64,000 bases of DNA from Bacillota bacterium (GCA_030705825.1 JAUZPR010000004.1:222-64221); one strand, 5' to 3'. Positions 1-24,626 are shown, counted from the stretch's first letter. The notes: a model not told the origin generated them from the letters alone. Made by a program: numbers and translations.

Positions 1-2058
1 AGTGTAACAGCGGATATAAGCTGGAATGCTGGAGAGCCGGCATATGATGCAAAGACAGCAGGGGAATACACCTTCACAGGAACACTGTCAGTAGCAGGAG
101 CAAGTATACCTGACGAACTTAAGACAGTAGCAGTGAAAGTGATAGTATCCCAGGCAGTAGTAGCATCAGTTGATTCATTGGCTGATATCTCAGTAGATTA
201 TGGGACTTCTTTGGATACTGTGAAGACAAAATTACCCGGCAAAGTGGGGATTACCTTGAATAATGGTGACCTGTCACAGGCTGATATTACCTGGAATAGT
301 GATAGCACAGGATATAGTTCAACCATACCTGGAAGCTACACTTTTACAGGAACATTGTCACTTACCGGAGTAACAGTACCCGTAGACAAGATGGCAACGG
401 TAAAGGTTAATGTATCATACCCCGGAACCTACAACATAACAAAACGTGACGTAGGAGGTATTTCGGTATCTGATTTTACCATATCGCTTAATGGTGTACC
501 CCAAGCTGCGTACTTCAACGTATATTATGTTTCGGAAAAATATCTGGTGAATCCAACAAATTCACCAATAGAAATCAGTGGTAAGCTGACATCAATGTCT
601 GTCGTTTTTGGTAATACTGATAACCTGCAGGTATGGGTTTACAGTGATGCTGAGGGTGGTAACAAGATAGCAGAATTCACCTTGACAAAAGATGGCTTCC
701 TGGTATCAAATACTCCTATGACTGCAATATACTCTGTTGACTTTAATGTGACGGACGGAACTAATCCGATAGCTGGTGCTAATGTCAAATTTAACGGTAT
801 TACTAAGCAGACAGGTGCAGACGGCCATGCAATATTTATTGGTGTACTGGCTGGAAATGATAAGGCATATAGTATAACTGCTGCAGGATATTATTCAGCG
901 ACTGGTAACGTTACTGTAAGCTCGAATAGTATAGAAACTGTTGTCATGGTTCTTCTTAAGACAGATAAGCCTGTCGTTCCTGAAACTGTCAGAGCAGGCG
1001 ATAAATCAATAAGCGGAACAGCAGAAGCTGGTTCGGTAATAACTGTTGCAAGGGGAACTGATATAATTGGAACAGGTACAGCATTGTCAGACGGAAGTTT
1101 TGTAGTAACATTGAATTCAGGTGTTGTACTGAGCCAGGGAGATATATTGCTGGTAACTGCAAAATCAGCTGGCAAGCAAACTAGTGATGCACAGAGTGTA
1201 ATCGTAACGTATGGCAATTCGACTATTAGTCCGTTATCTGCTACCTTTGACAAAAGAACAGACAGTATTAACTATACTGATATAACAATAACATTAAACT
1301 TAAGCGGTAATACTATGACCGGTATAACCAATGGGGCTTATACATTGGTATCAGGCACTGACTATACAATGACTGGTAGTACTGTAAAAATACTTAAGAG
1401 TTACCTTGGTAAACTGAGTATCAGTACACAGAATATGTTATTTAGTTTCAGTGCAGGAACTTCACAAACTCTAGCAGTTTCAATAATTGATACAGATTCA
1501 ACCATAACTCCAACATCGGCATCTTTTGATCCAAGAAGCGGTAAGCCAAATAATGCCGATATAGCAGTAACAATGAACCTGAATGGAAATACTCTGACAA
1601 GTATTAAAAATGGTTCAACAACCTTGACAGGTACTCAATATACTCTGTCAGGTAATACTGTTACGATACTTAAGAGTTACTTGGCTACACTCAATGCAAA
1701 TAGTACTCAGAATCTGGTATTCAGCTTCAGTGCTGGAGCTTCACAAACTTTGACGATTACAATAACAGATATTAATTCTACAATAAGTCCTACGACTGCT
1801 ACATTTAACAAGCACAGCGGCAGAACTGGAAATAATGATATTACTGTGACTATGACTCTAAATGGCAATACTTTAACAAATATAACAAATGGTAGCTATA
1901 CACTACATTCGAATACTGATTACACTATTTCAGGAAATACTGTTACCATTAAAAAGAGCTATTTGGGTACATTTGCTGCATATTCAACCCAATATCTTAC
2001 ATTCCACTTTAGCGCAGGTGCTAACCAAACATTAACAGTAACTATAACTTATAATTAA
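1..2058 (+). CDS. Cell-surface protein, 5'-truncated by the window edge. Ig-like (Big-type) domains followed by three tandem X2-like (CBM_X2-type) modules.
   Basis: Frame 1 is open from base 1, so the ORF-track start at 133 is an internal GTG. The motif DITWN...YTFTGTLS...P..K...V.V occurs twice at the N-terminal end, as in Ig-like surface domains. The segment GDKSISGTAEAGSVITV...DGSFVV looks like a bacterial Ig domain. The C-terminus is three 93-aa modules of the form ATFDK...DITVTM.LNGNTL..I.NGS..L..GTDYT.SGNTVTI.KSYL, which resemble X2 modules. Stop at 2056-2058, followed by a terminator. Confidence 0.75.
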   Translation, partial: SVTADISWNAGEPAYDAKTAGEYTFTGTLSVAGASIPDELKTVAVKVIVSQAVVASVDSLADISVDYGTSLDTVKTKLPGKVGITLNNGDLSQADITWNSDSTGYSSTIPGSYTFTGTLSLTGVTVPVDKMATVKVNVSYPGTYNITKRDVGGISVSDFTISLNGVPQAAYFNVYYVSEKYLVNPTNSPIEISGKLTSMSVVFGNTDNLQVWVYSDAEGGNKIAEFTLTKDGFLVSNTPMTAIYSVDFNVTDGTNPIAGANVKFNGITKQTGADGHAIFIGVLAGNDKAYSITAAGYYSATGNVTVSSNSIETVVMVLLKTDKPVVPETVRAGDKSISGTAEAGSVITVARGTDIIGTGTALSDGSFVVTLNSGVVLSQGDILLVTAKSAGKQTSDAQSVIVTYGNSTISPLSATFDKRTDSINYTDITITLNLSGNTMTGITNGAYTLVSGTDYTMTGSTVKILKSYLGKLSISTQNMLFSFSAGTSQTLAVSIIDTDSTITPTSASFDPRSGKPNNADIAVTMNLNGNTLTSIKNGSTTLTGTQYTLSGNTVTILKSYLATLNANSTQNLVFSFSAGASQTLTITITDINSTISPTTATFNKHSGRTGNNDITVTMTLNGNTLTNITNGSYTLHSNTDYTISGNTVTIKKSYLGTFAAYSTQYLTFHFSAGANQTLTVTITYN
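1219..2055 (+). repeat. Three in-frame tandem coding repeats of exactly 279 nt (93 aa) each: 1219-1497, 1498-1776, 1777-2055.
   Basis: Each unit begins S-T-I-(S/T)-P and ends T(L/I)(A/T)(V/I).I(I/T)D.. or TITYN. Unit boundaries were read directly from codons (tcg 1219, tca 1498, tct 1777). Confidence 0.85.
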
Positions 2059-2154: not shown

Positions 2155-4257
2155 ATGAGATATAGAGGATTGAAGTTTAGATTTTCAGTTTTGCTTCTTG
2201 TATTTCTTATTATCTTTTTCACACAGTCATTCGCATTCACAATCTCGGACATACCGGACAATACCATAAAACTTGGTGATGACTTTTTTGACCTAAATTC
2301 CAATGCAATGAACGACCCTGCCGGTACTATTCCAATCCAGTCTCTATTGACACCCGGAATAAACCAGAATAGGGCATACTTTAAAATAGGCGGAAACTGG
2401 TATGACTTATTCAACCTGAATGGAGACCAGACACTTACACCTGAAAATGCAATGACTGCAGACCAGGTAAATGCAATCCAGGGCTTCGGTAAATGGTATA
2501 AAGCCGGTGACGAGGTTGTTGTTTTATCAGACCGTGCAATTAAAGAAATACCAGTATTAAAAGAAATAGCATCCGATAAGGGAACCGAATACGCCTCAAT
2601 TAATTTGCCAAAGCAGGTGAAGGTGGTTCTGGATGACAACAGTACAATTGATGTCGGAGTAACATGGGATGCAGGTACTCCACTGTATAACAAGGATGTT
2701 CCGGGACGTTACCAGTTTTCAGGAACACTCGCTTCAGTTGAAGGTGTTACAAACCCAAATAATTTAAAGCCTTCAATAGAAGTAGAGGTAGTTATACCCA
2801 ATTCTGATCCTAATCCAAACACTACCATGAACACATCATCAGGAACTACACTCTTTGAGTTTGATAACCAATCAGACTGGGTGAGTTCAACATCAGCCAA
2901 TATAGAAATTGATCAGGCAAATTTTGTTTCGGGAACCGCATCCTCCGCATTATCTCCCTCGACACCTATTGCTATTTTAGATGCTACCGGGACTGCCACA
3001 AAGCAATCCTTTTTCCAGGTACAGACCAGCGGTAATATCGGAGACAAATTGAAGGACATGCAGAATATTGAATTCAATATATATGTACCTGATAAAACCA
3101 AATTTGACTATATGGTAATCAAATTTTACACCAATGATTTTCATAGCTGTTTCTATCAGAACGGAATTGGTAATTGGGAGGTTTCTAACGGCTGGAACAA
3201 GATAAGAAGGTCGGTCGGTGATTTCGAATACGTAGATAGTTCAGGAACTGCAGGTGTAAGTCAAATGTCTGCCATGAGCAGCATGAACAGTCTGGTACAA
3301 ACTTCGGACGGCATTCCGGCAGTAAATGATCTCAAGACAAGCATGCAGAAAAGTATAAGCTTATTGAATAATACCATATACAAACAAAAAGCAGGAAAGA
3401 AATCGGCTTTGTTAAGTTCTGCAGCAGCTTCCGGCAGTTCATTCTGGGGCAATATCTACAGTATGGACGTTGACATTGCTTTTACTAATCCTAATTTGCC
3501 AACTGTTAATTTTGACAAAATCGCAATTAATGTTGCCGGTAATGCCAAATTGTTATTTACATTTGATGATTCCTGGTATGATGTAAAACAATATGCAGAG
3601 CCGATATTAACAGCCAACAATTTCAAAGCTACCCTTTGGACTTATAAAGACGGTGTACTTAATGAATCGGGAACAGGACCTTTAAATATTATGAGTGTTT
3701 CAGACATAAATTCTCTTTATGCAAAGGGATGGGATGTAGGCAATCATACCGTCGACCATCCTGATGACATTACTGCACTGTCACCGGAAAATGTAATAAG
3801 TGAATATAGGGATAATCAGACATGGCTTGACCAAAATGGCTGGACCAGAGCTTCGCAGCATGTGTGCTATCCGTCAGGAAGCTACAATGAACAGGTGATA
3901 AATCTTTTGAAGAGCATAGGGGTGAAGTCTGCGAGGACAACAGAATATGGAATTCAACCTACACCGGTATTCAATATGTACCGGCTGAAAATAGTATTTA
4001 TCAGCAGGGATACACTGGTTTCCGATATTGAAAAACAAGTGGATGAAGCCGTTGCAACAGGTTCAACTATAATTTTCATGCTTCACAGGGTGGAAGACAG
4101 TCCAATTATGACAAACGATACTGAAGGTTACAATGCACTAGCTGTTTCTACAGCCAATTTCCAAGCTATTGTAAATTACGTCAAACAGCTGTCGGATGCA
4201 GGTTCCATAAGTGTAGAGACCATCAGCCAGTGGTATAACGAATACATTGGTAACTAA
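2155..4257 (+). CDS. Secreted multidomain polysaccharide deacetylase (C-terminal NodB/CE4 domain).
   Basis: RBS aaaggggg lies upstream of the ATG. The N-terminus has a hydrophobic signal-like segment (LLLVFLIIFFTQSFAF). There is an Ig-like segment (VVLDDNSTIDVGVTWDAGTPLYNKDVPGRYQFSGTL). The C-terminal domain carries the NodB motifs FTFDDSWYD, GNHTVDHPD and CYPSGSY. Confidence 0.8.
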   Translation: MRYRGLKFRFSVLLLVFLIIFFTQSFAFTISDIPDNTIKLGDDFFDLNSNAMNDPAGTIPIQSLLTPGINQNRAYFKIGGNWYDLFNLNGDQTLTPENAMTADQVNAIQGFGKWYKAGDEVVVLSDRAIKEIPVLKEIASDKGTEYASINLPKQVKVVLDDNSTIDVGVTWDAGTPLYNKDVPGRYQFSGTLASVEGVTNPNNLKPSIEVEVVIPNSDPNPNTTMNTSSGTTLFEFDNQSDWVSSTSANIEIDQANFVSGTASSALSPSTPIAILDATGTATKQSFFQVQTSGNIGDKLKDMQNIEFNIYVPDKTKFDYMVIKFYTNDFHSCFYQNGIGNWEVSNGWNKIRRSVGDFEYVDSSGTAGVSQMSAMSSMNSLVQTSDGIPAVNDLKTSMQKSISLLNNTIYKQKAGKKSALLSSAAASGSSFWGNIYSMDVDIAFTNPNLPTVNFDKIAINVAGNAKLLFTFDDSWYDVKQYAEPILTANNFKATLWTYKDGVLNESGTGPLNIMSVSDINSLYAKGWDVGNHTVDHPDDITALSPENVISEYRDNQTWLDQNGWTRASQHVCYPSGSYNEQVINLLKSIGVKSARTTEYGIQPTPVFNMYRLKIVFISRDTLVSDIEKQVDEAVATGSTIIFMLHRVEDSPIMTNDTEGYNALAVSTANFQAIVNYVKQLSDAGSISVETISQWYNEYIGN

Positions 4258-4299
4258 AACAAAAGTACGCACAAAAGTTGATAGTGATTGATGTGGGAG

Positions 4300-4322
4300 T
4301 AGCCTCTTATGGAGGCTATTTT
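4300..4322 (+). terminator. Intrinsic terminator after the deacetylase gene.
   Basis: Hairpin tagcctc-ttatg-gaggcta followed by tttt. Confidence 0.55.
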
Positions 4323-4349
4323 CATGCATTTCAGAAGTATTTTAAAGGT

Positions 4350-4385
4350 AAAAAAGAACGGCTGCAGGGAAAAGCAGCCGTTTTG
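4350..4385 (-). terminator. Intrinsic terminator closing the minus-strand pel/nucleotide-sugar operon. It could act in both directions.
   Basis: Stem aacggctgc (4357-4365) pairs with gcagccgtt (4374-4382). Read on the minus strand it is followed by tcttttttacc. An A-run and a T-run flank the stem on both sides. Confidence 0.7.
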
Positions 4386-4418
4386 TTATAAGGAAGGTAA
4401 CAATGGTTTTTATACTTG

Positions 4419-5318
4419 TTAAAACAAATCAGAGAATAGATCTTTTTTGGGTGACCATGGTGTATGGCTTATAAGTTTTGAATTATCACCATAAATATCA
4501 GATATGTCATTATTCTTTATCAAGCTGTCATCAATCTCAAAATACAGCTTCTTTCCAGCCATGTTCATCAGATTTGTTAAAATTTCCTCCATACTGAGTG
4601 ACACGGAACTGCATACATTGTAGATTTCTCCTGGATATCCGTTCATTAGAATTTGCCAATATGCTTCAACAACATCTGCAATATGTAAATAGTCTCTCTT
4701 TGGTTTTATATTGCCTACTTTTATAATATCTCCGTCCTTAGCATTGTTTATCTGTTCAATAAAATTGCCAACCGCCAATTTTCTGGAGATACCTTTTCCT
4801 ATTATATTGAAAGTTCTTGCAACATTCACATTGATTCCGAGGTTGTTAAAATAATATTGCGCAATTTCAGTTTGTATCAGCTTGGAAAAACCATATAAAT
4901 TTACAGGTGCTGCAGGGGAGGATTCTCTTACGGGTAACTGTCGGGCATTTCCGTATTCTGCTGCAGAACCGATTAAAAGTATTTTTTCTATAACTATATT
5001 ATTTTCTATAATTATTTCAAAAATATTTCGTGAGATATTTGCGTTAAGTTGATAATACTCATCAAATGATACGGCTTGGAAGGTACCTATCATATTTATC
5101 AAATAATTTGGTTTAAAGCTGACAATAATGTTTTTCAGGCTGTCTTTATCAAGAGGATTAACCTTTTCATACCATATCCATTTAAAATGGCTGTAATAGT
5201 AATCGTCCTTATCTACGCCGCAAATTGCGTATTTTTCATATAATTTATGTTTTTGGATAAAATCCTTAAAATGATAACCTGTAAAACTATTTGATCCTAG
5301 ACATAATATTTTTTTCAT
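4419..5318 (-). CDS. NAD-dependent epimerase/dehydratase/reductase (extended SDR), a nucleotide-sugar modifying enzyme.
   Basis: The preferred start is MKKILCLGSNSFTGYHF (ATG at 5318, GAGGAG 12 nt upstream), giving a Rossmann GxxxxxG N-terminus. The ORF-track start at 5402 would overlap the upstream gene by more than 100 nt. SDR-like YxxxK region (YGFSKLIQTEI). Overlaps the upstream gene by 32 nt. Confidence 0.75.
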   Translation of the reverse strand: MKKILCLGSNSFTGYHFKDFIQKHKLYEKYAICGVDKDDYYYSHFKWIWYEKVNPLDKDSLKNIIVSFKPNYLINMIGTFQAVSFDEYYQLNANISRNIFEIIIENNIVIEKILLIGSAAEYGNARQLPVRESSPAAPVNLYGFSKLIQTEIAQYYFNNLGINVNVARTFNIIGKGISRKLAVGNFIEQINNAKDGDIIKVGNIKPKRDYLHIADVVEAYWQILMNGYPGEIYNVCSSVSLSMEEILTNLMNMAGKKLYFEIDDSLIKNNDISDIYGDNSKLISHTPWSPKKDLFSDLF

Positions 5319-6018
5319 TAGGAAGGAATACTCCTCTCTTTTCTCTAAAGATGGAGGTCGCTTTGTCATAGTCATCAAACCTTCCGATATCAAGCCAATC
5401 ATAATCTCCTCTATAGCAGCCTATCTTTTTCCCATTTTGGCTTAATAGTGTTATTAAATCGGGAATATCCATCTTTAGGTTTTTAGGTATAAATTCAACA
5501 ACATTTTTATTAAAAACATAAATACCCATACTTACATCAAAATTATAAATGGGTTTTTCTATGTAATTAAGGAATTTTTCATTTTCAGATTGAATAACAC
5601 CAAGGTCTATCTTAACTTCCTTATTAAAAACCGAAATAGTAACATCATTTTCGTTTTTTAAATGAAAGTTATATAGGTCGTTGTAATCTATACTGGTTAA
5701 AAGATCCCCATTCATTACAAGGAAAGTATCTTCAAGGTTGTCAATGATAGAAATTGGTCCGGCAGTTCCAAGGGCACTTTCCTCGATTGAATACTCAATA
5801 TCGATCCCATACTTTTCACCGGTATTAAAAAAAGCTATTAAAAGATCGGCAAGATAATTAAGGGATAACACAAAATTTGTGAATCCAAAATTTTTAAGCT
5901 GTTTCAAAATAATTTCCAGTATAGGAGTATCATCAATAGGCAGTAGTGGTTTCGGAATACAGGTAGTAAACGGTTTTAACCTGACTCCTTTACCGCCCGC
6001 AAGAATTATTGCCTGCAT
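5287..6018 (-). CDS. Sugar-phosphate nucleotidyltransferase (NTP_transferase family).
   Basis: The N-terminus MQAIILAGGKGVRLKPFT..IPKPLLPI is the canonical nucleotidyltransferase signature. The size (243 aa) is typical. Confidence 0.85.
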   Translation of the reverse strand: MQAIILAGGKGVRLKPFTTCIPKPLLPIDDTPILEIILKQLKNFGFTNFVLSLNYLADLLIAFFNTGEKYGIDIEYSIEESALGTAGPISIIDNLEDTFLVMNGDLLTSIDYNDLYNFHLKNENDVTISVFNKEVKIDLGVIQSENEKFLNYIEKPIYNFDVSMGIYVFNKNVVEFIPKNLKMDIPDLITLLSQNGKKIGCYRGDYDWLDIGRFDDYDKATSIFREKRGVFLPNEKNIMSRIK

Positions 6019-6033
6019 AAAACACCCTCCATT

Positions 6034-7026
6034 TTACATATTGAATATATCAGTTTTATATCTATTAATATTATGCTGTAACCATTCAATAGTTTCTTTT
6101 AATCCGGCACTTAAAGAATATTTTGGAGTCCATTCTGTAAGAGCTCTGATCTTACTATTGGAGCCCAAAAGCCTGTTAACTTCGCTTTTATCCGGCCTTA
6201 GCCTGATATCATCAGTTATGATTCTGGCTTCTGGGTTCAATTGGCGGCTGATTTCTTCAAAAATATCTTTAACCGATATCTCCTTTTGTGAAGCTATGTT
6301 TATTTCTTCACCAATAGCTGCATCTGCTTTCGCAATTGAAATAAAACCTGCTACGGTATCTTTAACATAATTGAAATCTCTTGTTGGAGTCAGATTGCCT
6401 AGTTTTATTTCCTTTTTACCCGCTAACAGCTGTGTAATTATAGTAGGTATTACTGCTCTGGCAGACTGTCTGGGTCCATAGGTATTAAAAGGTCGTACTA
6501 TCGTTGTTGGAAGGTTATAGCTTCTGCAAAATGCTTCGGTTAGCCTGTCGGCTCCTATTTTTGAGGCTGAATAGGGGGATTGTCCCTGGTAAGGGTGTTT
6601 CTCATCAATTGGAATATATTGTGCAGTGCCGTATACTTCAGACGTTGAAGTAACAAGTACACGCTCAAGATTATAGTCTCTGGAGGCTTCCAGTATGTTT
6701 AATGTACCTTTAATATTTGTATCTACATAACTTTCCGGGGCATGGTAACTATAGGGTATTGCTATCAGTGCCGCCAGGTGAAAAATTATGTCAACTTTAT
6801 TAAATGCCTCCCTTACACAATTATGATCTCTAATATCTCCGCTGAATACCTCGATCTCCTGCAATTTGGTTTTGTCTATGGTATCAAGCCATCCCCAGGT
6901 GTTTAAAGAATTGTAATACACGAAAGCTTTTACTTTAGCACCTTCATCTATGAGTGCTTCGACCAGATGGCTTCCTATGAACCCATCTGCACCGGTTACC
7001 AAAATGTTTTTTCCGCAAAGTCTCAT
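6034..7026 (-). CDS. NAD-dependent nucleotide-sugar 4,6-dehydratase/epimerase (extended SDR).
   Basis: ILVTGADGFIGSHLVEAL (GxxGxxG), STSEVYG and YSASK (catalytic S...YxxxK), and VRPFNTYGPRQ. Confidence 0.85.
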   Translation of the reverse strand: MRLCGKNILVTGADGFIGSHLVEALIDEGAKVKAFVYYNSLNTWGWLDTIDKTKLQEIEVFSGDIRDHNCVREAFNKVDIIFHLAALIAIPYSYHAPESYVDTNIKGTLNILEASRDYNLERVLVTSTSEVYGTAQYIPIDEKHPYQGQSPYSASKIGADRLTEAFCRSYNLPTTIVRPFNTYGPRQSARAVIPTIITQLLAGKKEIKLGNLTPTRDFNYVKDTVAGFISIAKADAAIGEEINIASQKEISVKDIFEEISRQLNPEARIITDDIRLRPDKSEVNRLLGSNSKIRALTEWTPKYSLSAGLKETIEWLQHNINRYKTDIFNM

Positions 7027-7133
7027 TTGTTTTCCTCCTAAATAACTGAATAAAGATATATATTATGTATATTGTGGGTATAAAAGGAATATGTCTTTGG
7101 GGAAATTTTTATTATAGTAGAGAAAAAACATTG

Positions 7134-8522
7134 TCAATCCAAATTCGGGAACATCATAAATGCATATTTTTTGATATTTTTAAAAAATATTACTAGAAAT
7201 ACAATTGATATAATAAGAGAAAGTATTGATGCAGTCATAAAGCCTATGCATATTAAGTTTAAATGAACTAGATAAGTGATAATAGTAAGCAGTGCATTCA
7301 ATGCTAAATAAATCAAAGATATAAGAAAAGCAAAATTCCTGGCATCAAAGTAAAGTATTACTATCATTGAAACATACATTAATAATGAAGAATTCATACC
7401 TAAAGTTAATATACAAAAGGTGTAATAGGAAGGAAAGCCTGTTTCAATATTTTTGCAGATTATAAGAGGCAATGAGAGCATAATTAATGTTATAATTGTC
7501 TGTATCAAAGCCAGTTTAATATAGCAATATTTTACAGTAACTTTTAATGAATATAAATTATAATCTATTTCATCCAAAGTACCATTGTTATTTATAGATA
7601 AATAGAATGCATTGCAAGAGGTATGCAATGAGGTTTCAAATCTTATACTGAAATATACCAATCCGGGAATGAAACCCAGGACAGCAAGATAAAAAGGCAG
7701 ATCAAATCCGGTCTTAACTGTCAGGAACCCGTTAATAAAACTTCCGGTATCGGTAAATCTATAAAAGAGGGATAAAAAGTATAGGCTGAATGTATAGCAA
7801 AATCCTATAGTAATTAGGGAGGGATATTTGATAATATATCTTGTCCACTCCATAAAGTTGCCGTTTCCTTCTCCAAAAGCTTTCCTGATTTGATAAATCA
7901 GTATAATAGCGGTCAAGGCAAACCCTGAATCAAAGCTTAATAATATATAGTTCAAAGAAAATTGTGGCGGCACCTGCTTAATAAACAGCAACATCAGGAC
8001 AATAAGTATATTTCCTGCAAGAAAACCTAGAGAAATGGATTTATAATTTTTCACGGCAGATAGGTAAATGGTTTCCAAGCTTATAATACTTACTATTGAA
8101 TATAAGATTGACAGCATAATTCCATATTGGTATTTCATTCCTGCAAAAAGTATTAAGCTTATTGAAGCCGCTATGCTTAAAATAACTGCAAAAACCATGG
8201 CACCGTACAGTGATGGCATTATCTTTTGAAACTCCTTTTTGTGAAGGCAATCTGAAACATACCTTGTAAGAACCATTGAATATATGGAAGTCAGGATTGT
8301 TGATAAAATAAAGGAGTACGTTACTGTGGTTAATATCCTTTCAGAAGGAATTCCGGAGTATTTTGAAGTACCTAATATAAGTTGAATAATGAATACGGCT
8401 ACTATACACATAAACATTGGCCCATTAAGTACTATTACTGCATAGCCATAGGACTTTACCGAATGTATCAGGCCATGTTTCCTGTCAATCATATTTCTTA
8501 ATTTAAATCCGATTCCAGCCAT
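7134..8522 (-). CDS. pelG: PelG-like exopolysaccharide export/polymerisation membrane protein.
   Basis: ATG at 8522 gives MAGIGFKLRNM, the characteristic PelG N-terminus. RBS GAGGTG lies 7 nt upstream; the ORF-track TTG at 8528 is less likely. The protein is polytopic and hydrophobic throughout. It sits directly downstream of a PelF-like gene. Confidence 0.75.
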   Translation of the reverse strand: MAGIGFKLRNMIDRKHGLIHSVKSYGYAVIVLNGPMFMCIVAVFIIQLILGTSKYSGIPSERILTTVTYSFILSTILTSIYSMVLTRYVSDCLHKKEFQKIMPSLYGAMVFAVILSIAASISLILFAGMKYQYGIMLSILYSIVSIISLETIYLSAVKNYKSISLGFLAGNILIVLMLLFIKQVPPQFSLNYILLSFDSGFALTAIILIYQIRKAFGEGNGNFMEWTRYIIKYPSLITIGFCYTFSLYFLSLFYRFTDTGSFINGFLTVKTGFDLPFYLAVLGFIPGLVYFSIRFETSLHTSCNAFYLSINNNGTLDEIDYNLYSLKVTVKYCYIKLALIQTIITLIMLSLPLIICKNIETGFPSYYTFCILTLGMNSSLLMYVSMIVILYFDARNFAFLISLIYLALNALLTIITYLVHLNLICIGFMTASILSLIISIVFLVIFFKNIKKYAFMMFPNLD

Positions 8523-8544
8523 TACCAATCACCTCTTAAACTAT

Positions 8545-9966
8545 TCAGGACAATGCTTCTTCGTATACCTTCTTATATTCTGCCTGCATGTTTTTTATTG
8601 TGTAATATTTACTGACTCTCTGCTTTCCAACCTCACCCATCCTTTTACGCATAGATTCATCCAGAGCCAAATGTACAATTGCTTTGGCTATTGCAGTGGA
8701 ATCCATAACAGGTACAAGGATACCAGCTCGGTCTTGGCCTTGGCTGGCACCGTAAACTAATTCACTGCAGCAGCCTACATCGGTAACAATAATGGGCTTG
8801 GAATAAGCCATGGCTTCAAGTATGGAAAGGGGCTGGCCTTCACTGATACTGGTCAGTATAACAATATCCATGGAAAATAAGGTGTGCAAATAGGTGTTGT
8901 AATCAACTCTTTTTGTAAAAACAACATCACAGATATTCTCTTTTTTTATATAATCCAATACATATTCAAAATATTCTTCATCTTCATTAGTAGGTCCCAT
9001 AATAACCAACTTCAATGCGGGTACTTCTTTTTTAGCCAGTTTAAAGGACCTGACCATTGTTATAATATCCTTTATAGGTACTACTCTGGCAATTGCACCT
9101 AATACTATACTATCATCATAAAGCTTGTTATCGAAGGTCTTGTTATAATCCTCAACATTCATACCGTTGGGAATAATCAAAGTTTTTTGTATGTCTGCAC
9201 CTATTCCAATCTGAATACTTCTGTTTCTTTCAAATTGAGTTACTATTCTTTGTGAAAATTCATATGCACATTTTGACATTGAAACGAAATATTTTACCCA
9301 AAGCTCTTTTGCATATCCCATTATTAAATTGGTCTTTATTATTTCCTCCTCTCTTTCCCTTGTATAAATGCCATGCTCTGTTAAAATAAAGGGTTTCTTT
9401 TTAAAATAATTCATTTTAGATGCAACAATACCAGGGAACCCGGCTGAGACACAATGGTATACATCAGCTTCGGGAACGTCCTCCGAAAGGACATAAAACT
9501 GGTATATGTACATTGTTCTGATTGACCACAAAAAATCATTGAACGGAGCATTCGGAAAGTCTGTTTTATATATATCCTGTACTATTTCATAAAATTCAGA
9601 TGAATTAAAAAAGTCAATCAGATTATTTCCCTTGATTCTTTCAATAAATTCAAAAAGCATAGGCCAATCGGAATATCTTCCTGAAAAATGATTCGATAAA
9701 GCCTCTCTTTCACGATTGTCTTTGATAAAATGACGAGAAAGCCAGTGCACTTTCTTTTTTACAGGGGTATCCAAAAAGATTTCTTTAATATGTATCATAT
9801 TATCCGGTATTTTACAGCTGTATTTACCTTTGTCTTTTTCTTTTGCACCTATGGCAAATGTTACAAATTGAAGGTCGGTAAAGCACTTGAGGAAAATATT
9901 CAACCAGCTGGTAATACCCCCGATCATATAAGGATAACTTCCTTCAGTAATTATGCATATCTTCAT
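8545..9966 (-). CDS. pelF: PelF-like GT4 glycosyltransferase.
   Basis: Preferred start MKICIITEGSYPYMIGGITSW (ATG 9966, GAGGGA RBS) matches the PelF/DUF3492-type N-terminus. The C-terminal GT-B motif is SISEGQPLSILEAMAYSKPIIVTDVG. Confidence 0.8.
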   Translation of the reverse strand: MKICIITEGSYPYMIGGITSWLNIFLKCFTDLQFVTFAIGAKEKDKGKYSCKIPDNMIHIKEIFLDTPVKKKVHWLSRHFIKDNREREALSNHFSGRYSDWPMLFEFIERIKGNNLIDFFNSSEFYEIVQDIYKTDFPNAPFNDFLWSIRTMYIYQFYVLSEDVPEADVYHCVSAGFPGIVASKMNYFKKKPFILTEHGIYTREREEEIIKTNLIMGYAKELWVKYFVSMSKCAYEFSQRIVTQFERNRSIQIGIGADIQKTLIIPNGMNVEDYNKTFDNKLYDDSIVLGAIARVVPIKDIITMVRSFKLAKKEVPALKLVIMGPTNEDEEYFEYVLDYIKKENICDVVFTKRVDYNTYLHTLFSMDIVILTSISEGQPLSILEAMAYSKPIIVTDVGCCSELVYGASQGQDRAGILVPVMDSTAIAKAIVHLALDESMRKRMGEVGKQRVSKYYTIKNMQAEYKKVYEEALS

Positions 9967-10001
9967 TAGCTTAATCCCTCTTATACATTTATAGAATTTC
10001 A

Positions 10002-10913
10002 TTACGTAAGAATATTTCTGTTCCAGAAATTAACCATACCGGCTGCCTTATCGGTTAAAAGCAAATCTTTTTCGGATATTGCCTGCAATGTGTCAATAAA
10101 AATATTGGGGTTATTACTCAAATAGCAAAATTCCAGTAAAGCCAGGTATGAATTTTCGCTTCTTGGATACTTACTTATAAATGATTTGCATGAAGCATAA
10201 GCACTGTATAATTCCATTAAAATCAATTCATTTTTTATTTTATTAATAAAATATTTTTCTTCAGGCAGATTATCTATTGAGAAAAGGGTATTAAATACTT
10301 TAAATAAACTTTTCCTATTTTCAAAAGTTGCTGTGTTATTAAGTTCTTCCCATTCGATCAAATCCAAATAAGCATCAATCAGCAGCTTACAATTTTTAAT
10401 GTCATTTTGCTTTTTTTGAAATTCATTTTTTCTTTTGCAAAAGTTTTCGTTTGTTTTGCGCATTATATCTGTTATTGCAGCAGAAGAATAATGGACTATC
10501 TCCGGATCTTCATCCAGTAATGCTTTATTTAGAAAAGGTAATATGGTAGTATAATCCTGGTTTATGCAGTTGAAGAATCTTTTCCTTCTTTGTATTGAAT
10601 CTTTAATTTCAAATATTAAGTCTATAGACAAGACATCATTAAAATTAATATTATTCTCATCTGAAATAACAACTTCTGAAAAGGTTGGGTTGATTTCATC
10701 CTCAGCAATTAATTCGCTTGGATCATAGCTTTTATTTTTTGCAAGTATATCTACAGTAAACATCATAATAAGCCCAAAAAACGGTAATGCGGATATTATA
10801 ATAATACGCGGAAGAAAATTATACTTGGCAAATATCTTAATAAAAACAGAATATATTGCGGCTATTAAAAAATTGATTAATAAAGCAAGTATATAAATAT
10901 TCATATTGAACAT
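10002..10913 (-). CDS. pelE: PelE-like membrane-anchored helical-repeat protein.
   Basis: Two N-terminal hydrophobic helices are followed by an all-helical, TPR-like region. The gene lies between PelD-like and PelF-like genes. The alternative ATG at 10904 forms an ATGA overlap with the pelD stop (10901-10903). The assignment rests on position and architecture, not on a diagnostic motif. Confidence 0.55.
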   Translation of the reverse strand: MFNMNIYILALLINFLIAAIYSVFIKIFAKYNFLPRIIIISALPFFGLIMMFTVDILAKNKSYDPSELIAEDEINPTFSEVVISDENNINFNDVLSIDLIFEIKDSIQRRKRFFNCINQDYTTILPFLNKALLDEDPEIVHYSSAAITDIMRKTNENFCKRKNEFQKKQNDIKNCKLLIDAYLDLIEWEELNNTATFENRKSLFKVFNTLFSIDNLPEEKYFINKIKNELILMELYSAYASCKSFISKYPRSENSYLALLEFCYLSNNPNIFIDTLQAISEKDLLLTDKAAGMVNFWNRNILT

Positions 10914-12625
10914 CCCTTAAAGATTTTAAAAGAATAATAATGTGATATCAGTTCTCCAAGAAAAGTAAGCAAATATTCCATTTCAGCTGTTATTCTGTCA
11001 AAATTGATTCCGTTGAATGTGATTATTCCAAAAACGTATTTATTGGTTTCATCAATAAGAGGTAAGGCAATCATGGGATTTACATCGAAACTTTTATTAA
11101 CATAAATAGACTTGTCTTCAATTAGTTTTTTAAAAAAATCCGGGTTTCTTAATTCGGGTACTTGATTTTCAGATAACAGATAGAAATTTACTTCCTTAAA
11201 TCCGGTTATTTCGCGTACAATTTGAGGAATAGCAGCTTTAAATTCACTTATTGCAGTATTTTCAATTTTCTTTATAGCCATTAATACTTTAATAATATTG
11301 CAATCAGCTATCTTTAGCTGTTCTGCCAGGATTGATGCCGATTTTCTTGTGTCGGATAAATTATTTTTAATACTTGCATAGAGCTGTTCCAATCTTAAAT
11401 AAGACTCTTTAAGCTGCTGCAATTCAAGTTTCTTAGACGAAATGCTGAATCCTGACAGTAATGCTATAAGAAAATAAAGTATGTATGTTTCTATTGTATT
11501 TAGGTTTAATGCAAAACTGCCATTAAAATATGCCTGAATATCGGTTGAAGCAATAGAGAGTACAGCTGATATTATGGAATGTTTAATACCATATAATAGT
11601 CCCATAATTATTATACATAATATTTTTGTATCGAAATGGAGCCGTATAATATTTGAAATCCATACAGCAAACAGAGTCAACAGGATATTTTCAACCCATG
11701 GTAAAATAAGATGCTTTTTCTTTATTTTTTTTGGAGGTTCGGTTTTATTTGATTTATGAGCCTCGAATTTTAAAAACCATTTATAGGTTTTATCAAGGCC
11801 AAAAGTCAGGGGTGTATTAATATAAATATCCAGTTTGATTTCATAGTTGGGGGAATACTTGACTGGCTGATGTCCCCTATAAGATTCAGCTATGCTATTT
11901 GAAAATTTACTATATATATCATTAACGAGTTTATTTATTTCAATAATATCTCCGCGCAACTCCAAAATTCCGCTGGAACTGCTTTCTATTATATTACACA
12001 GCTCTTCTACGGCATCGAAAATGTATAATAATTCTATTAGTTTAATATGCTCAGGCAAATATTCCCGCCTGACATAAGCAGATTTGAATAACTCAAGAAC
12101 TACTCCGCCTTCGCCGCGGATATTCTGACCAGGGCCATAAACAGGAGGCATTCTGACAATAGCAGTATTTAAATGGTATACCCGGCTGTAGGTAGAACAA
12201 TACTGCTCACAGGTTTTTCTGTTCATATAATAGACACCGTTTTTATTATTTTCATTTAATATCTCAGATTCATCATAATTAGATAAGAATAACGTGGAAA
12301 GGAATACAAATCTTGAAACATTGAATTCTACACAAAGATTGAGTGTATTTATGACAGGATCCAACTCGGGGATATATATTTTCCCCATATTGTCAAATGT
12401 GTTTCCGGCTGCGTAAATTACTGCGTCAAAGTGACCTGATTCAAAAATATCCCTGCAATCTTTTGATGAGGCATCAAGTTTATAATATTCAAATTTATGA
12501 ATAAAAGTATGGTGGTTTTCCTCTTGATTTGAGTCTATAACTGTAACAATATGCTTTTTTAAAAGCAATTCGTTTACCAGGTTTTTACCTATAAAACCAT
12601 TTCCCCCTATCACAAGAATGTTCAT
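10901..12625 (-). CDS. pelD: PelD-like protein with an N-terminal SDR (epimerase-like) domain, 4 TM helices and a C-terminal GAF-like domain. No GGDEF domain.
   Basis: MNILVIGGNGFIGKNLV (Rossmann) plus roughly 290 aa with an SDR-like layout. A hydrophobic block follows (about aa 305-400). The last roughly 170 aa look like a single GAF-like fold and then the protein ends. RBS GAGGGGGA. First gene of the operon. Confidence 0.65.
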   Translation of the reverse strand: MNILVIGGNGFIGKNLVNELLLKKHIVTVIDSNQEENHHTFIHKFEYYKLDASSKDCRDIFESGHFDAVIYAAGNTFDNMGKIYIPELDPVINTLNLCVEFNVSRFVFLSTLFLSNYDESEILNENNKNGVYYMNRKTCEQYCSTYSRVYHLNTAIVRMPPVYGPGQNIRGEGGVVLELFKSAYVRREYLPEHIKLIELLYIFDAVEELCNIIESSSSGILELRGDIIEINKLVNDIYSKFSNSIAESYRGHQPVKYSPNYEIKLDIYINTPLTFGLDKTYKWFLKFEAHKSNKTEPPKKIKKKHLILPWVENILLTLFAVWISNIIRLHFDTKILCIIIMGLLYGIKHSIISAVLSIASTDIQAYFNGSFALNLNTIETYILYFLIALLSGFSISSKKLELQQLKESYLRLEQLYASIKNNLSDTRKSASILAEQLKIADCNIIKVLMAIKKIENTAISEFKAAIPQIVREITGFKEVNFYLLSENQVPELRNPDFFKKLIEDKSIYVNKSFDVNPMIALPLIDETNKYVFGIITFNGINFDRITAEMEYLLTFLGELISHYYSFKIFKGCSI

Positions 12626-12732: not shown

Positions 12733-12768
12733 AAAAAAAAATTAGGTATATTCGCATACCTAATTTTT
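12733..12768 (-). terminator. Intrinsic terminator after the MFS gene, upstream of the pel operon.
   Basis: Stem attaggtat / atacctaat. Read on the minus strand it is followed by a run of 9 T. Confidence 0.75.
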
Positions 12769-14437: not shown

Positions 14438-14917
14438 TTATTCATTTATAAATTTTTTGAATTTTTCCATTATATCCGGGAATGTATCAAAGAATCGGTT
14501 AAGAAGTTCTATCCTGTGCAGGGTGTTTGCAGTTATATTGTGTTCAATAAGCTCTGTTTCAAATAGGATACTTTCGGTTACTCCGATGTGGCGCAAAAAA
14601 TCTTCTAAAACTGCATGCCTGTTAAATAGGAACTTTCCTATTTCTTTTCCATTCTCGGTAAGAAAAATGATTCCATACTTTTTGTAATCTAAAAGCCCCA
14701 AATGGGTAAGCTTCTGTACCATTTTTGTTGCTGAAGGAGCCTGGACATTCAAAAGCTCTGCAAGCTCATTAATACGGATATAGCCCTCCTCAAGACTATT
14801 CCGGTAAATCATCTCAAGATAATCCTCCATAGATGAGGTCAAAAGCTTGTTATTTTGTTCAAGCAGCTGGTATCCCCTGACCGTGTAAAATTTCTGTGGT
14901 TCTTCCATATTGCTCAC
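14438..14917 (-). CDS. mntR: DtxR-family, MntR-like manganese-responsive transcriptional regulator.
   Basis: SMEDYLEMIY...ATKMVQKL...NRHAVLEDFL...ELIEHN aligns by eye with B. subtilis MntR, including the positions of the metal ligands (D, E, H, E, E, H). Confidence 0.65.
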   Translation of the reverse strand: MSNMEEPQKFYTVRGYQLLEQNNKLLTSSMEDYLEMIYRNSLEEGYIRINELAELLNVQAPSATKMVQKLTHLGLLDYKKYGIIFLTENGKEIGKFLFNRHAVLEDFLRHIGVTESILFETELIEHNITANTLHRIELLNRFFDTFPDIMEKFKKFINE

Positions 14918-16337: not shown

Positions 16338-17552
16338 TTGAACAGGGCATTGATTACAGATGTGCATTATCGTATGGGGTTGGCTGCAGTCAGGTCTCTT
16401 GGCAGGAGGTCAATACCGGTTACTGCGGTGGAATTTAATAATATTCCCCAGAAATCAGTTTTGGGGTTTTATTCCCGCTATACAGATGATAAAAAGATTG
16501 TACCCAATGCATTGGAAAATCAAATGGAGTTTGTAAACAGCATTATTAAAATTGCTGAGGAACAGCAGAATACCGCCGCAAACCATATGGACAAGCCGGT
16601 GCTAATACCAGTTGGTTTGGACAGTCTGATGGCGGTATCCAGATATGATAAACTTCTGGAACCTTATTATGATTTCGTAGTTCCGCCTTTGGAAAGTATT
16701 GAAATTGCAAATGATACCGAGAAACTGCTCGAGGTAGCTGAAAAAATAGGTGTACCATATCCCGAGTCAACTACTTTAGCTGAGAATGAGACGGTTGAGC
16801 ATTTATCACAGAGGATAGGATATCCTGTAGTAATAAAATACCGTAAGGGCGAACTTTTAAAATTAAGTGCCGGTAAGAGATATAGAATAATTCACGATCA
16901 AAAAACCTTTATTGAAGCATTTAAAGAGATGCATGCAATACAAAAGTATCCTCTAGTGCAGAGATATGTTAGCGGTACGGGTTTCGGCGTTTCCGTAGTG
17001 TTTGACAGACGTGGAGAACCGCTGGAAATATTCTGCCATAAAAGGTTGAGGGAATATCCTGCAACCGGGGGTCCAAGCTGCTTCTGTGAAAGTGTTTGGG
17101 ATGACAGGTTGGTAGACTATGCAGTAAAATTACTTAAGGCATTAAATTGGCGCGGTGTGGCAATGGTAGAATTCAAAGGTGATCTTGATTATGAGGTGTG
17201 CCTGATGGAAATAAATCCGAGGTTTTGGGGAAGCCTTCCTTTGTCAATTGCTTCGGGATGCGATATACCTTATGCAATTTACCGTGCAGCATCCTGGGAA
17301 TTTTCGAAGGAAAATGATGCGACGGGATATAAATGGAGTCCAGAAAGATATAAAAAAGGAAAACGGATGCGTTACCTACTGCAGGATATAATGACATTAC
17401 CAGGTTATTTAAAGATTACGAAAAATAAAGCCGGATTTCTTGCAAAATTTACAGCTCAATTATTTAATCCCACCATTTCAGAGGGAGTTTTTGAATTTAA
17501 AGATTGGAAGCCATCATTGGCATATTTGAGACAAGCAGTAAAGAAAATATAA
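16338..17552 (+). CDS. ATP-grasp domain enzyme (carboxylate-amine/thiol ligase superfamily), substrate unknown.
   Basis: TTG start after AAAGGGAG. GYPVVIKYRKG, EYPATGGPS, GVAMVEFK and MEINPRFWGS are typical ATP-grasp elements. Confidence 0.75.
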   Translation: MNRALITDVHYRMGLAAVRSLGRRSIPVTAVEFNNIPQKSVLGFYSRYTDDKKIVPNALENQMEFVNSIIKIAEEQQNTAANHMDKPVLIPVGLDSLMAVSRYDKLLEPYYDFVVPPLESIEIANDTEKLLEVAEKIGVPYPESTTLAENETVEHLSQRIGYPVVIKYRKGELLKLSAGKRYRIIHDQKTFIEAFKEMHAIQKYPLVQRYVSGTGFGVSVVFDRRGEPLEIFCHKRLREYPATGGPSCFCESVWDDRLVDYAVKLLKALNWRGVAMVEFKGDLDYEVCLMEINPRFWGSLPLSIASGCDIPYAIYRAASWEFSKENDATGYKWSPERYKKGKRMRYLLQDIMTLPGYLKITKNKAGFLAKFTAQLFNPTISEGVFEFKDWKPSLAYLRQAVKKI

Positions 17553-17553
17553 T

Positions 17554-18384
17554 TTGGAGGACAAGCTGTTGAAATTCGACCTGCACTTGCATTCCAGACA
17601 TTCTCCTGATTCTAAAAGTAAAGTAAAGGATATTATAGATAAAGCCCTGAGGACAGAACTTCAGGGCGTTTCAATTACTGACCACAACTGCTTTGACGGA
17701 AGTGAAGAAGCTTTAAGCATAAATACATCCGATCTGATTATTGTTCCCGGAGCAGAATATTCTACTGATCAGGGACACATTCTTGTTTATTTTCTGAAGT
17801 ATGGGATTGAAAAGCTAAACCTGGATACCGATTCAATGGGCCGTTACAGGTGGCAGGATATTATTCAGGAAGCACACCGGCAGGATGCACTGGCTTTTCT
17901 TGCACATCCTTACAGATATAAAAAGAATTACGAAAGTGACATATGGCAAGAGGTTGACGGTATAGAAATTTATAATTCCAGAGCGGCCTTGTGCAGGAAC
18001 ATGAATGCCAACCTCAGGGCTTTTGAACAGGCCTCGGAAATGAATAAGGCTTTTTCCGCAGGAAGCGACGGACATTGGCTGGGGGAAATAGGGAACGCCT
18101 TTTGGGAATATGAAAACATAAAAGAAAATAAGACAGATATTAACGAAGAAATAAAACAGGCATTAAGGAGCGGTAAGGGCAAAGTTTTCGGTTCAGCAAC
18201 AAACAGGTTTTATGAACCGTCCAGCCAGATATTTAAAAGATTACACGCCAGAAAATATTTAAATTTACCCAAACCACTTATTAAAATGGCATATGCATGT
18301 GTTATGGAAACCGGCAGATATCTCGGAATAGGTGAAAAACCTATGGAGGGCTGGCTGGACATTGATTCTAATGAAAAGGAGTGA
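17554..18384 (+). CDS. PHP-domain metal-dependent phosphoesterase.
   Basis: FDLHLHSRHSPDS and SITDHN are PHP motifs, plus a later AHPYR and GSDGH. The start is uncertain: an in-frame TTG at 17569 has better spacing to GGAGG (17557-17561). Confidence 0.75.
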   Translation: MEDKLLKFDLHLHSRHSPDSKSKVKDIIDKALRTELQGVSITDHNCFDGSEEALSINTSDLIIVPGAEYSTDQGHILVYFLKYGIEKLNLDTDSMGRYRWQDIIQEAHRQDALAFLAHPYRYKKNYESDIWQEVDGIEIYNSRAALCRNMNANLRAFEQASEMNKAFSAGSDGHWLGEIGNAFWEYENIKENKTDINEEIKQALRSGKGKVFGSATNRFYEPSSQIFKRLHARKYLNLPKPLIKMAYACVMETGRYLGIGEKPMEGWLDIDSNEKE

Positions 18385-24620: not shown

Positions 24621-24626
24621 AAGGTA

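Follow-up and report, generated by a model that had tools for sequence, protein, structure and literature searches.

Gram-positive bacteria synthesize Pel-type exopolysaccharide from an operon that, in Bacillus cereus ATCC 10987, has the order pelD-E-A_DA-F-G (Whitfield et al. 2020, PMC7112168), and the structure of the encoded deacetylase PelA_DA has been reported (9ZAU, PMC13254593). A 64,000-nucleotide stretch of DNA from a Bacillota bacterium (hereafter the window) carries pel genes with no pelA_DA among them, which raises the question of whether such a locus is a working Pel system and, if so, what it makes and how it is controlled.

Gene content and boundaries of the pel unit

Four intact pel genes in the order D-E-F-G were read from the sequence on the minus strand, from 12625 to 7134, and their junctions were exactly as originally predicted. 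The pelD stop codon TGA (10903-10901) overlaps the pelE start codon at 10904 to form ATGA (10901-10904), with AAGGGA 8 nt upstream; position 10904 is the better start because a start at the in-frame ATG at 10913 would leave no distance to this Shine-Dalgarno (SD) sequence. A gap of 35 nt with a GAGGG SD separates pelE from pelF, and one of 22 nt with AAGAGGTGA separates pelF from pelG. On the 5' side, an AT-rich hairpin at 12733..12768 on the minus strand (stem TTAGGTAT/ATACCTAA, 6-nt loop, then nine T), also read from the sequence, terminates the upstream MFS gene and forms the boundary of the pel unit. Our terminator scan demands three G-C pairs and hence is blind to this hairpin. The promoter of the pel unit must lie between the hairpin and 12625.

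Downstream of pelD, the only strong terminator-like site on the minus strand found by the scan was the intrinsic terminator at 4382-4357, which has a 9-bp stem with six G-C pairs followed by a T run. The pel unit is larger than four genes, as three sugar-nucleotide genes (hereafter the trio) run on, on the same strand, to this terminator. The locus had been described as a compact pelDEFG operon; the four genes are indeed tightly packed, but three more belong to the same string. None of the seven ORFs is disrupted, SD sequences are present, and adjoining genes overlap or are separated by short gaps; we infer that the pel genes and the trio are co-transcribed. The 107-nt gap between pelG and the first gene of the trio contains a TTGACA-15-TATAAT match, a possible separate promoter for the trio.

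The pelF gene (8545..9966, minus strand) encodes a 473-aa protein (start MKICIITEGSYPY) with a cytoplasmic GT4 domain and the PelF-specific DUF3492 N-domain. It scored 324 bits against NCBIfam NF038011 (cut-off 100), matched the Pfam models DUF3492 (PF11997, 2.5e-67) and PF00534 (2.2e-25), and contains the E-x7-E motif EGQPLSILE. The pelG gene (7134..8522, minus strand) encodes a predicted polytopic membrane exporter of 462 aa (MAGIGFKLR...) with ~12 hydrophobic segments in its hydropathy profile, which matched PF16933 over its full length (1-452/452) at 334.7 bits (cut-off 29). The curated cut-offs were surpassed 3-fold by PelF and 11-fold by PelG, and the runner-up PelF-related families scored under their own cut-offs.

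The pelE gene (10002..10904, minus strand) encodes 300 aa from the ATG at 10904, with two N-terminal transmembrane (TM) helices predicted from hydropathy and a helical-repeat cytoplasmic domain; in the alignment, the motif L..AL.D.D.E..HYA is conserved and FW is found at the C-terminus. The Pel-specific parts of PelD and PelE matched no Pfam or NCBIfam model. No curated PelE model exists, and the PelE assignment was tested by homology to syntenic PelE proteins from operons carrying 9ZAU-type PelA_DA. The variant PelE aligned with this canonical Gram-positive PelE in hhalign at 99.9% (E 1.4e-31, 285 columns), and both PelD and PelE are homologous to their counterparts in canonical pelD-E-A_DA-F-G operons of same-order genomes. 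Profile searches had been proposed as the check on the original prediction, and they yielded neither an unrelated exopolysaccharide system nor a failed PelE or PelG call.

A PelD variant that ends after the GAF domain

[quoted passage not shown] In phmmer searches, residues 1-562 aligned with hundreds of ~725-aa PelDs of SDR-TM-GAF-GGDEF architecture, in agreement with the predicted PelD-like identity, and within the collected hit set the C-terminal part alone gave E-values down to 1.6e-18 against canonical ~725-aa PelDs. The PelD profile also matched the KdpD TM domain at 0.008. The AF2 model (pLDDT 76) showed the four TM helices, the long helix, and the GAF domain, and Foldseek retrieved GAF folds, with P. 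aeruginosa PelD (4dn0) at rank 18 and a weak E-value of 2e-2.

The protein terminates right after the GAF domain, at the point where canonical Gram-positive PelD continues into its degenerate, c-di-GMP-binding GGDEF domain. All PelDs of the variant clade described below likewise end after GAF, whereas same-order PelDs go on for ~120 aa with an RxxD I-site. Neither the window nor any variant locus contained a homologue of the GGDEF tail or an I-site, and the genome of this bacterium encodes at least 14 GGDEF proteins. As PelD has no GGDEF domain or I-site, c-di-GMP activation through binding to PelD cannot occur, and control must instead be transcriptional or exerted through another ligand or partner. 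The locus would accordingly be a c-di-GMP-independent one, judging from its domain content.

A PelD without GGDEF can work, as the class IV PelD of Streptococcus intermedius is needed for polymer-dependent aggregation (PMC12345266). Class IV has been described as streptococcal only, and streptococci are without c-di-GMP signalling (PMC7890745, class scheme). The present PelD shares with class IV the SDR-TM-GAF architecture and the lack of GGDEF. However, its host has many GGDEF proteins, unlike streptococci, and streptococci keep pelA_DA, which the present locus is without. The class IV SDR has also lost GxxGxxG and the SYK triad, whereas the present SDR keeps GGNGFIG, S/T (LST), and YMNRK (YxxxK). 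In three clade members, the catalytic Tyr of this domain is replaced by His, which argues against assigning it a firm role.

Sugar-nucleotide genes and a secreted CE4 protein

The first gene of the trio (6034..7026, minus strand) encodes a LegB-family NDP-sugar 4,6-dehydratase (TIGR04180, 503 bits, cut-off 475) with the motifs STSEVYG and YSASK, whose substrate is probably GDP-GlcNAc. It is 72% identical to the LegB of a complete legionaminic-acid cassette (LegB-LegC-NTase-NeuD-NeuB-NeuC) in genome G042, and the pel-linked copies compared were 73-76% identical to each other. The second gene (5287..6018, minus strand) encodes a sugar-1-phosphate nucleotidyltransferase (PF00483, 1.8e-35), whose best NCBIfam and PDB relatives were mannose-1-P guanylyltransferases and UGPase; its 36% identity to the enzyme of the G042 cassette does not fix its nucleotide or sugar specificity. 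The third (4419..5318, minus strand) encodes an Rmd-like SDR (Pfam Epimerase, 5.8e-31), a probable NDP-4-keto-6-deoxy-sugar 4-reductase. Its closest relative and best PDB match was the GDP-4-keto-6-deoxyhexose reductase Rmd (2pk3, GDP-6-deoxy-D-lyxo-4-hexulose reductase, 4.7e-33). The gene probably starts at the ATG at 5318 (MKKILCLGSNSFTG), giving a 32-nt overlap with the preceding gene, as in the homologous locus L012.

In Campylobacter jejuni, the first steps of the legionaminic-acid pathway are carried out by a PtmE-type nucleotidyltransferase and the GDP-GlcNAc 4,6-dehydratase LegB. The present dehydratase scored over the LegB model cut-off, but unlike a legionaminic-acid cassette, the locus has just the LegB-type gene and the nucleotidyltransferase of that set, with no genes for LegC aminotransferase, NeuB, NeuC, NeuD, or CMP-transferase. 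As LegC and Neu genes are missing, the keto-sugar would be reduced to a 6-deoxy sugar rather than converted to a nonulosonic acid, and the trio together would form a dedicated NDP-6-deoxy-sugar pathway. No close paralogues of the trio genes and no second LegB were found elsewhere in the genome of this bacterium.

No PelA_DA gene (DUF2194/CE26) lies between pelE and pelF, where the gap is only 35 nt. In the 100%-complete assembly, PF09960 had 0 matches, and tblastn with three PelA_DA orthologues, which match B. cereus PelA_DA 9ZAU at 1.7e-82, found no match. The absence of pelA_DA that had been noted for the operon extends to the whole assembly, and the expected absence of PelB and PelC was borne out in the neighbourhood. 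Clostridial and streptococcal pel clusters carry accessory genes for CotH, polyphosphate polymerase (VTC), DUF4956, and DUF4832 (PMC7112168); using G010 proteins as queries, tblastn found no match for CotH, VTC, or DUF4956 in the genome.

Convergent to the pel unit, a plus-strand gene (2155..4257) encodes a secreted 700-aa protein in which a CE4 deacetylase domain (PF01522, 1.7e-18) is combined with a signal peptide, Big_4, and a beta-sandwich module. The CE4 domain has the Asp-His-His metal triad and the catalytic Asp/His, with the motifs TFDD, HTVDH, and MLH. Its AF2 model gave a CE4 fold in Foldseek, with acetyl-xylan esterases and PgaB among the fold matches. Acetyl-xylan esterases are common in plant-biomass degraders, and the CE4 fold fits these too. 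Like IcaB and the N-domain of PgaB, it is a secreted CE4 protein with a metal triad, encoded beside a synthase-type exopolysaccharide operon; unlike them, it has a Big_4 and beta-sandwich context. It has no sequence relation to PelA_DA.

Orthologues of the CE4 protein (42-54% identity) are encoded beside pel genes in six further loci (L012, L014, L019, L021, L022, L023), and the L019 copy is the eighth and last gene of a co-directional operon string. For L017 and L018, the flanking sequence that was captured contained no CE4 gene. Among 29 PelG-positive Clostridia genomes, 20 had DUF2194, seven had the CE4 family, and none had both (hypergeometric p = 2.3e-5, phylogeny not taken into account). 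The CE4 family was thus present in seven of the nine genomes without DUF2194, ~3-9 kb from pelG whenever the two were on one contig. These patterns suggest that the convergent CE4 gene probably supplies the deacetylase function, as a candidate replacement of PelA_DA.

Conservation of the variant locus and its possible product

The same gene set was found in at least ten other loci from Acetivibrio and uncultured Bacillota. D-E-F-G with the full trio was present in the window, L012/L013, L014, L015, L017, L018, L019, L021, and L023, while L016 had only the nucleotidyltransferase. The trio was on the same strand as pel in six loci and convergent in three Acetivibrio-genus genomes. In the PelG tree, which took in eight of the variant loci, these formed one long-branch clade (support 100/100) with a stem length of 1.76 substitutions per site. 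Between L017 and L018, dN/dS was 0.04-0.14 for pelD, E, F, G, legB, and ntp (0.11 for pelD), showing that these genes are under purifying selection. This bacterium is placed in one order with an Acetivibrio MAG, whose genus includes three other carriers; its genome contained only one marginal dockerin, and its original description as a cellulolytic-type Clostridium is unconfirmed.

Compared to the operon of B. cereus ATCC 10987, the present locus has the same D-E-...-F-G order on one strand, a DUF3492+GT4 PelF, PelG, a 2-TM PelE, a TM+GAF PelD, and no outer-membrane parts. It differs in having no PelA_DA in the locus or genome, an extra N-terminal SDR in a PelD without GGDEF or I-site, an added trio and CE4 gene, and no flanking galE or pelA_H. 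Clostridial-type clusters were represented by the same-order genomes G010 (L007) and G022 (L008), which share with it the bacterial order, the N-terminal SDR of PelD, and homologous PelE, PelF, and PelG (20-44% identity). In contrast to the present locus, G010 and G022 encode a PelD of 721-732 aa that carries an RxxD I-site, their pelE and pelF genes flank one for a DUF2194 PelA_DA, and CotH/VTC/DUF4956 genes follow downstream. The comparison bears out the predicted variant architecture. The original reading of the locus was incomplete rather than wrong, having missed the trio, the loss of GGDEF, and the CE4 gene.

Three other explanations were considered. An unlikely one is that the product is ordinary Pel (alpha-1,4 GalNAc/GalN), the trio being an unrelated neighbouring cassette (e.g., for protein or cell-wall glycan decoration) and the CE4 protein a plant-polysaccharide esterase. 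The resemblance of the CE4 fold to acetyl-xylan esterases, the promoter-like sequence between pelG and legB, the finding of LegB-type dehydratases away from pel in other genomes, and a GH114 hydrolase, of a family active on alpha-1,4-galactosaminide polymers, beside locus L012 would all fit it. However, the nucleotidyltransferase adjoins pel in all variant loci, and the full trio does so in all but L016 and in two orientations, while these loci contained no further gene for a glycosyltransferase, flippase, or polymerase. The mutual exclusion of the CE4 family and DUF2194 among PelG-positive genomes, and the CE4 gene closing the same co-directional string in L019, also argue against it.

That the locus is a decaying, non-functional remnant of pelD-E-A_DA-F-G, left after the loss of pelA_DA and the PelD GGDEF domain, is strongly disfavoured and very improbable. 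Both PelA_DA and c-di-GMP binding by PelD, needed in B. cereus or P. aeruginosa (PMC7112168, PMC13254593), are missing, but the intact ORFs with their SD sequences and close junctions, the recurrence of the reduced set, the low dN/dS values, and the functional GGDEF-less streptococcal PelD (PMC12345266) are at odds with decay. A non-Pel route of the Wzx/Wzy or cellulose-synthase type was refuted by the profile scores of PelF and PelG and has practically no chance of being correct; apart from the missing curated matches for the Pel-specific regions of PelD and PelE, no support for it was found, and these two proteins are homologous to syntenic genes in operons with 9ZAU-type PelA_DA and CotH/VTC/DUF4956.

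We therefore consider it likely that the locus represents a functional, divergent Gram-positive Pel-type sub-family that has no c-di-GMP domain, apparently uses a CE4 enzyme rather than PelA_DA, and carries its own 6-deoxy-sugar pathway. In this proposed system, the nucleotidyltransferase, the LegB-type 4,6-dehydratase, and the Rmd-type 4-reductase would act in turn to produce an NDP-6-deoxy-hexose, most likely a GDP-6-deoxy-HexNAc of the QuiNAc or FucNAc type. PelF would polymerize the nucleotide sugar at the membrane and PelG would export the chain, with PelE (2 TM and helical repeats) and PelD (4 TM and GAF) completing the membrane complex; the exported polymer would then be modified by the secreted CE4 enzyme, the gene of which adjoins the operon. 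PelF was the sole glycosyltransferase across all loci examined and hence is the likely user of the trio's sugar. The attached 6-deoxy-sugar pathway speaks for a product that is mixed or other than a GalNAc/GalN polymer, and the polymer probably differs from classical Pel, a partially de-N-acetylated alpha-1,4 GalNAc. A more specific proposal, which we put forward only tentatively, is that the clade polymerizes a GDP-linked 6-deoxy-N-acetylhexosamine (QuiNAc/FucNAc type) that is de-N-acetylated by the CE4 enzyme that displaced PelA_DA. If true, the polymer would be a cationic exopolysaccharide of 6-deoxy-aminosugars that has not been known before, and its synthesis would have no receptor-level coupling to c-di-GMP, although these bacteria use c-di-GMP elsewhere.

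Gene content of the pel locus

Pel is counted among the most widespread biofilm polysaccharides. On the minus strand of the window, four intact open reading frames of 574, 300, 473, and 462 aa (12625–7134) encode PelD-, PelE-, PelF-, and PelG-like proteins. Direct reading of the sequence showed that the pelD stop codon (TGA, 10903–10901) and an ATG at 10904 share bases as ATGA, and AAGGGA lies 8 nt upstream of this ATG. The pelE start was placed there rather than at the in-frame ATG at 10913, because the latter leaves no space for a ribosome-binding site. The pelE–pelF and pelF–pelG gaps were 35 nt and 22 nt, respectively, with good Shine-Dalgarno sequences at both. The coordinates, the ATGA overlap, and the two gaps given in the original prediction were exact when re-read from the sequence.

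In the profile HMM searches that had been proposed as a check, PelF and PelG cleared the curated cut-offs. PelF scored 324 bits against NCBIfam NF038011 (cut-off 100) and matched the PelF-specific DUF3492 at 2.5e-67, and the full-length match of PelG to PF16933 scored 334.7 bits (cut-off 29). PelF alone gave no match in a first scan of genome contigs. PelD and PelE were anchored through relatives, since their Pel-specific parts have no curated model. The PelE clade of the window aligned over its whole length with canonical PelE of the same order (hhalign 99.9%, E 1.4e-31), and PelD aligned collinearly with the same-order canonical operons over residues 1–564.

The reading as a compact pelDEFG operon held for the four genes and their families but was too short, as the gene string continues on the same strand through a sugar-nucleotide trio to a terminator at 4382–4357 (minus strand), the only strong one on this strand. 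The observation itself holds, and its first interpretation is supported, although incomplete. The trio encodes a LegB-type SDR (330 aa), a sugar-1-P nucleotidyltransferase (243 aa), and a third protein, also an SDR (~299 aa), all on the minus strand. The pelG–legB gap is 107 nt long and hairpin-free. A perfect TTGACA and TATAAT, just 15 nt apart, overlap the pelG stop codon (7111–7137, minus strand) and may serve the trio as a weak internal promoter. No Rfam family, riboswitches included, was found upstream of pelD or within the pelG–legB gap, and the pelG–legB spacers of six loci had no conserved element in common. Elsewhere in the window, a match to the Mn2+ (yybP-ykoY) riboswitch (24512–24626, minus strand; E 1.8e-7) reached 39 bits, short of the gathering score (45), and an MntR-like regulator was located at 14438–14917.

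Conservation of the variant and its candidate deacetylase

As predicted, no gene for the DUF2194 deacetylase PelA_DA was present between pelE and pelF, and the whole assembly (242 contigs, 100% estimated completeness) yielded 0 matches to PF09960 and 0 by tblastn with three orthologues. An assembly artefact was ruled out by the identical junction in at least ten other assemblies. In contrast to published surveys, which present Gram-positive pel as a uniform pelD-E-A_DA-F-G set, the window locus departs from that set. The published loci comprise these genes plus listed accessory sets, with four PelD classes, and no description of the window-type gene set was found in this Pel literature (PMC7112168, PMC7112194, PMC7890745, PMC12345266, PMC13254593).

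In the same order, genomes G010 and G022 have operons encoding an SDR-TM-GAF-GGDEF protein of 721–732 aa, a 2-TM protein of ~300 aa, a DUF2194 protein, PelF, and PelG, with CotH, VTC, and DUF4956 additionally in G010. Except for DUF4832, this is the clostridial and streptococcal layout of Whitfield et al. (PMC7112168), and the DUF2194 protein of G022 gave a 1.7e-82 match to 9ZAU, the PelA_DA structure from B. cereus. In the window's own assembly, tblastn with the G010 proteins found no CotH, VTC, or DUF4956.

The relatives of PelG formed a tight group at 47–56% identity, after which identity fell to 32% or less. In a maximum-likelihood tree, the PelGs of the window, five metagenomic sequences, and two MAGs formed one clade (support 100/100), which was nested within Gram-positive PelG on a stem of 1.76 substitutions per site. 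All variant loci examined contained pelD, pelE, pelF, and pelG and lacked both DUF2194 and the GGDEF tail of PelD. Synteny with other Clostridia, a comparison that had been suggested for the four genes, showed that the DUF2194-less core indeed recurs and that the nucleotidyltransferase always adjoins it; the full trio was present in all variant loci except one (L016). The trio runs opposite to pelG in the three genomes that share a genus with an Acetivibrio MAG, so the trio–pel association outlasts rearrangement. Between two genomes of this genus, dN/dS was 0.11 for pelD, 0.11 for pelE, 0.05 for pelF, 0.07 for pelG, 0.04 for legB, and 0.14 for the nucleotidyltransferase. Of the 149 species genomes in the order, 4 (two families) carried the variant and 9 carried canonical types. 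Experiments look feasible because one carrier, from the same Acetivibrio-type genus, is a complete 4.9-Mb genome.

Convergent on the operon, a plus-strand gene (2155–4257) encodes a secreted protein of 700 aa. This protein combines Big_4 and a beta-sandwich module with a CE4 domain that keeps TFDD, HTVDH, and MLH; its predicted model has the standard CE4 fold. The best Foldseek match of the model (beta-sandwich plus CE4) was the turret protein of Haloferax tailed virus 1 (8qpg_TA, E 6.8e-12, 519 columns), which outranked every bacterial CE4 enzyme. The gene directly upstream (1–2058, plus strand), truncated at the edge of the window, encodes a surface protein that carries Big_4, Big_6, and three CBM_X2 domains and is not conserved next to the CE4 gene in other loci. 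Orthologues of the CE4 protein (42–54% identity) adjoin pel genes in six further loci. In L014 and L021 they follow the trio in convergent orientation, and in L012 the orthologue lies upstream, on the pel strand, with a GH114 gene as its neighbour. The L019 orthologue is gene eight of the co-directional string, and that of L023 (genome G042) is separated from the trio by ~4 kb. In L022, the orthologue stands beside a canonical-clade pel locus without DUF2194 and without the GGDEF tail. One CE4 homologue (L020) had no pel neighbour.

Among 29 PelG-positive genomes of the class, the CE4 family was absent from all 20 with DUF2194 and present in seven of the nine without it, namely the four genomes of the variant clade as well as G119, G485, and G528. 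Wherever one contig holds both, the CE4 gene lies ~3–9 kb from pelG. A complete lack of overlap would arise by chance with a probability of 36/1,560,780 = 2.3e-5, uncorrected for relatedness, and at least four lineages are involved. This mutual exclusion is a clean candidate for non-orthologous displacement, and its genomic pattern suggests that PelA_DA was probably displaced by the CE4 enzyme.

Locus L022 (Logan SRR18006931, 462–11884) has PelF and PelG of the canonical clade, a 652-aa PelD, and a 77-aa ORF between pelE and pelF. Flanking genes encode DUF4832, a beta-helix protein, and an orthologue of the window CE4 protein along its full length. This locus may represent an independent case of the replacement. 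DUF2194 and the CE4 family are both missing from two PelG-positive genomes of one genus (G168 and G238), which either have a third solution for polymer modification or need none. A second deacetylase locus in the window (16338–19811, plus strand) has no counterpart beside other pel loci; its tightly packed co-directional genes encode a CE4 deacetylase that carries SLH domains, together with an ATP-grasp enzyme and a PHP phosphoesterase.

Frequent pel neighbours are right-handed beta-helix proteins (L017, L018, L019, L022, L023) or GH114 (L012), which could be the matching glycanases. The window showed neither, and no GH114 (PelA_H-like) protein was found in its own genome. In L023, the beta-helix protein (4263–6281) between the trio and the CE4 gene ends in a region with weak similarity to dockerins (20.3 bits, just below the cut-off), which hints that this putative glycanase may be cellulosome-associated in that species. 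For the window's own genome, the label of cellulosome producer was unsupported, with one marginal dockerin.

PelD without a GGDEF domain

The window PelD ends directly after GAF, whereas same-order PelDs extend into an RxxD-bearing domain (LIRSND, CIRETD). There is no space for a GGDEF remnant, because the pelE start sits inside the pelD stop codon. An exhaustive HMMER search returned 3007 PelD relatives, the top ones being ~725 aa long, covering query residues 1–562 and continuing for ~105–130 residues more; a cluster look-up of relatives yielded no names. In an AF2 model of residues 296–574 (pLDDT 76), four TM helices and a single helix of ~80 residues accompany an alpha/beta domain that matched GAF folds in Foldseek (all E-values weak), with P. 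aeruginosa PelD (4dn0) at rank 18. At the sequence level, the TM-GAF profile missed P. aeruginosa PelD and gave KdpD-TM (0.008) and chance poxvirus core protein matches, and a word-index search with the C-terminal half matched the query itself alone.

This architecture corresponds to class IV PelD, which Whitfield and Howell (PMC7890745) described in streptococci only and tied to absent c-di-GMP signalling. That link fails in the present genome, because it contains 15 GGDEF matches, 14 of them strong; a lifestyle free of c-di-GMP is thereby ruled out as the cause of GGDEF loss. The SDR domain also differs, retaining GGNGFIG, S/T, and YMNRK where that of streptococcal class IV is degenerate. 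Within the variant clade, the SDR tyrosine is sometimes histidine, and in some members the whole SDR domain is missing. Three metagenomic relatives (P0088, P0101, and P0138; 615–635 aa) combine a fully canonical SDR (SSAAVYG, SPYGxxK) with no GGDEF tail, a combination that falls outside the four published classes. Loss of the c-di-GMP receptor domain thus reaches beyond streptococci without the signal.

Predicted precursor pathway and polymer

The LegB-type dehydratase scored 503 bits against TIGR04180 (cut-off 475). Exclusive association of such genes with pel was ruled out, as paralogues occur elsewhere. Because a paralogue 72% identical to the window enzyme sits inside a full legionaminic-acid cassette (LegB, LegC, nucleotidyltransferase, NeuD, NeuB, NeuC, and cytidylyltransferase) in the complete genome G042, the dehydratase substrate is most likely GDP-GlcNAc. 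Where this cassette has the LegC aminotransferase, the window has a reductase, and the expected product of the trio, judged from gene content, is GDP-6-deoxy-HexNAc. The closest solved relative of the reductase is 2pk3, a GDP-6-deoxy-D-lyxo-4-hexulose reductase (4.7e-33), and the window nucleotidyltransferase is just 36% identical to the cassette enzyme; the trio may instead run GDP-D-rhamnose-type chemistry.

In the proposed mechanism, PelF, the only glycosyltransferase in any variant locus, would consume the sugar nucleotide from the trio, the chain would be exported by PelG, and PelE and PelD would complete the membrane complex. The exported polymer would then be modified extracellularly by the CE4 enzyme. 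Action of c-di-GMP through PelD would be impossible, since the I-site domain is missing. The Pel core synthase appears to have been re-equipped at least once, with another deacetylase family and its own precursor pathway. A 6-deoxy-aminosugar polymer, if this is the product, would widen the known chemistry of synthase-dependent exopolysaccharides.
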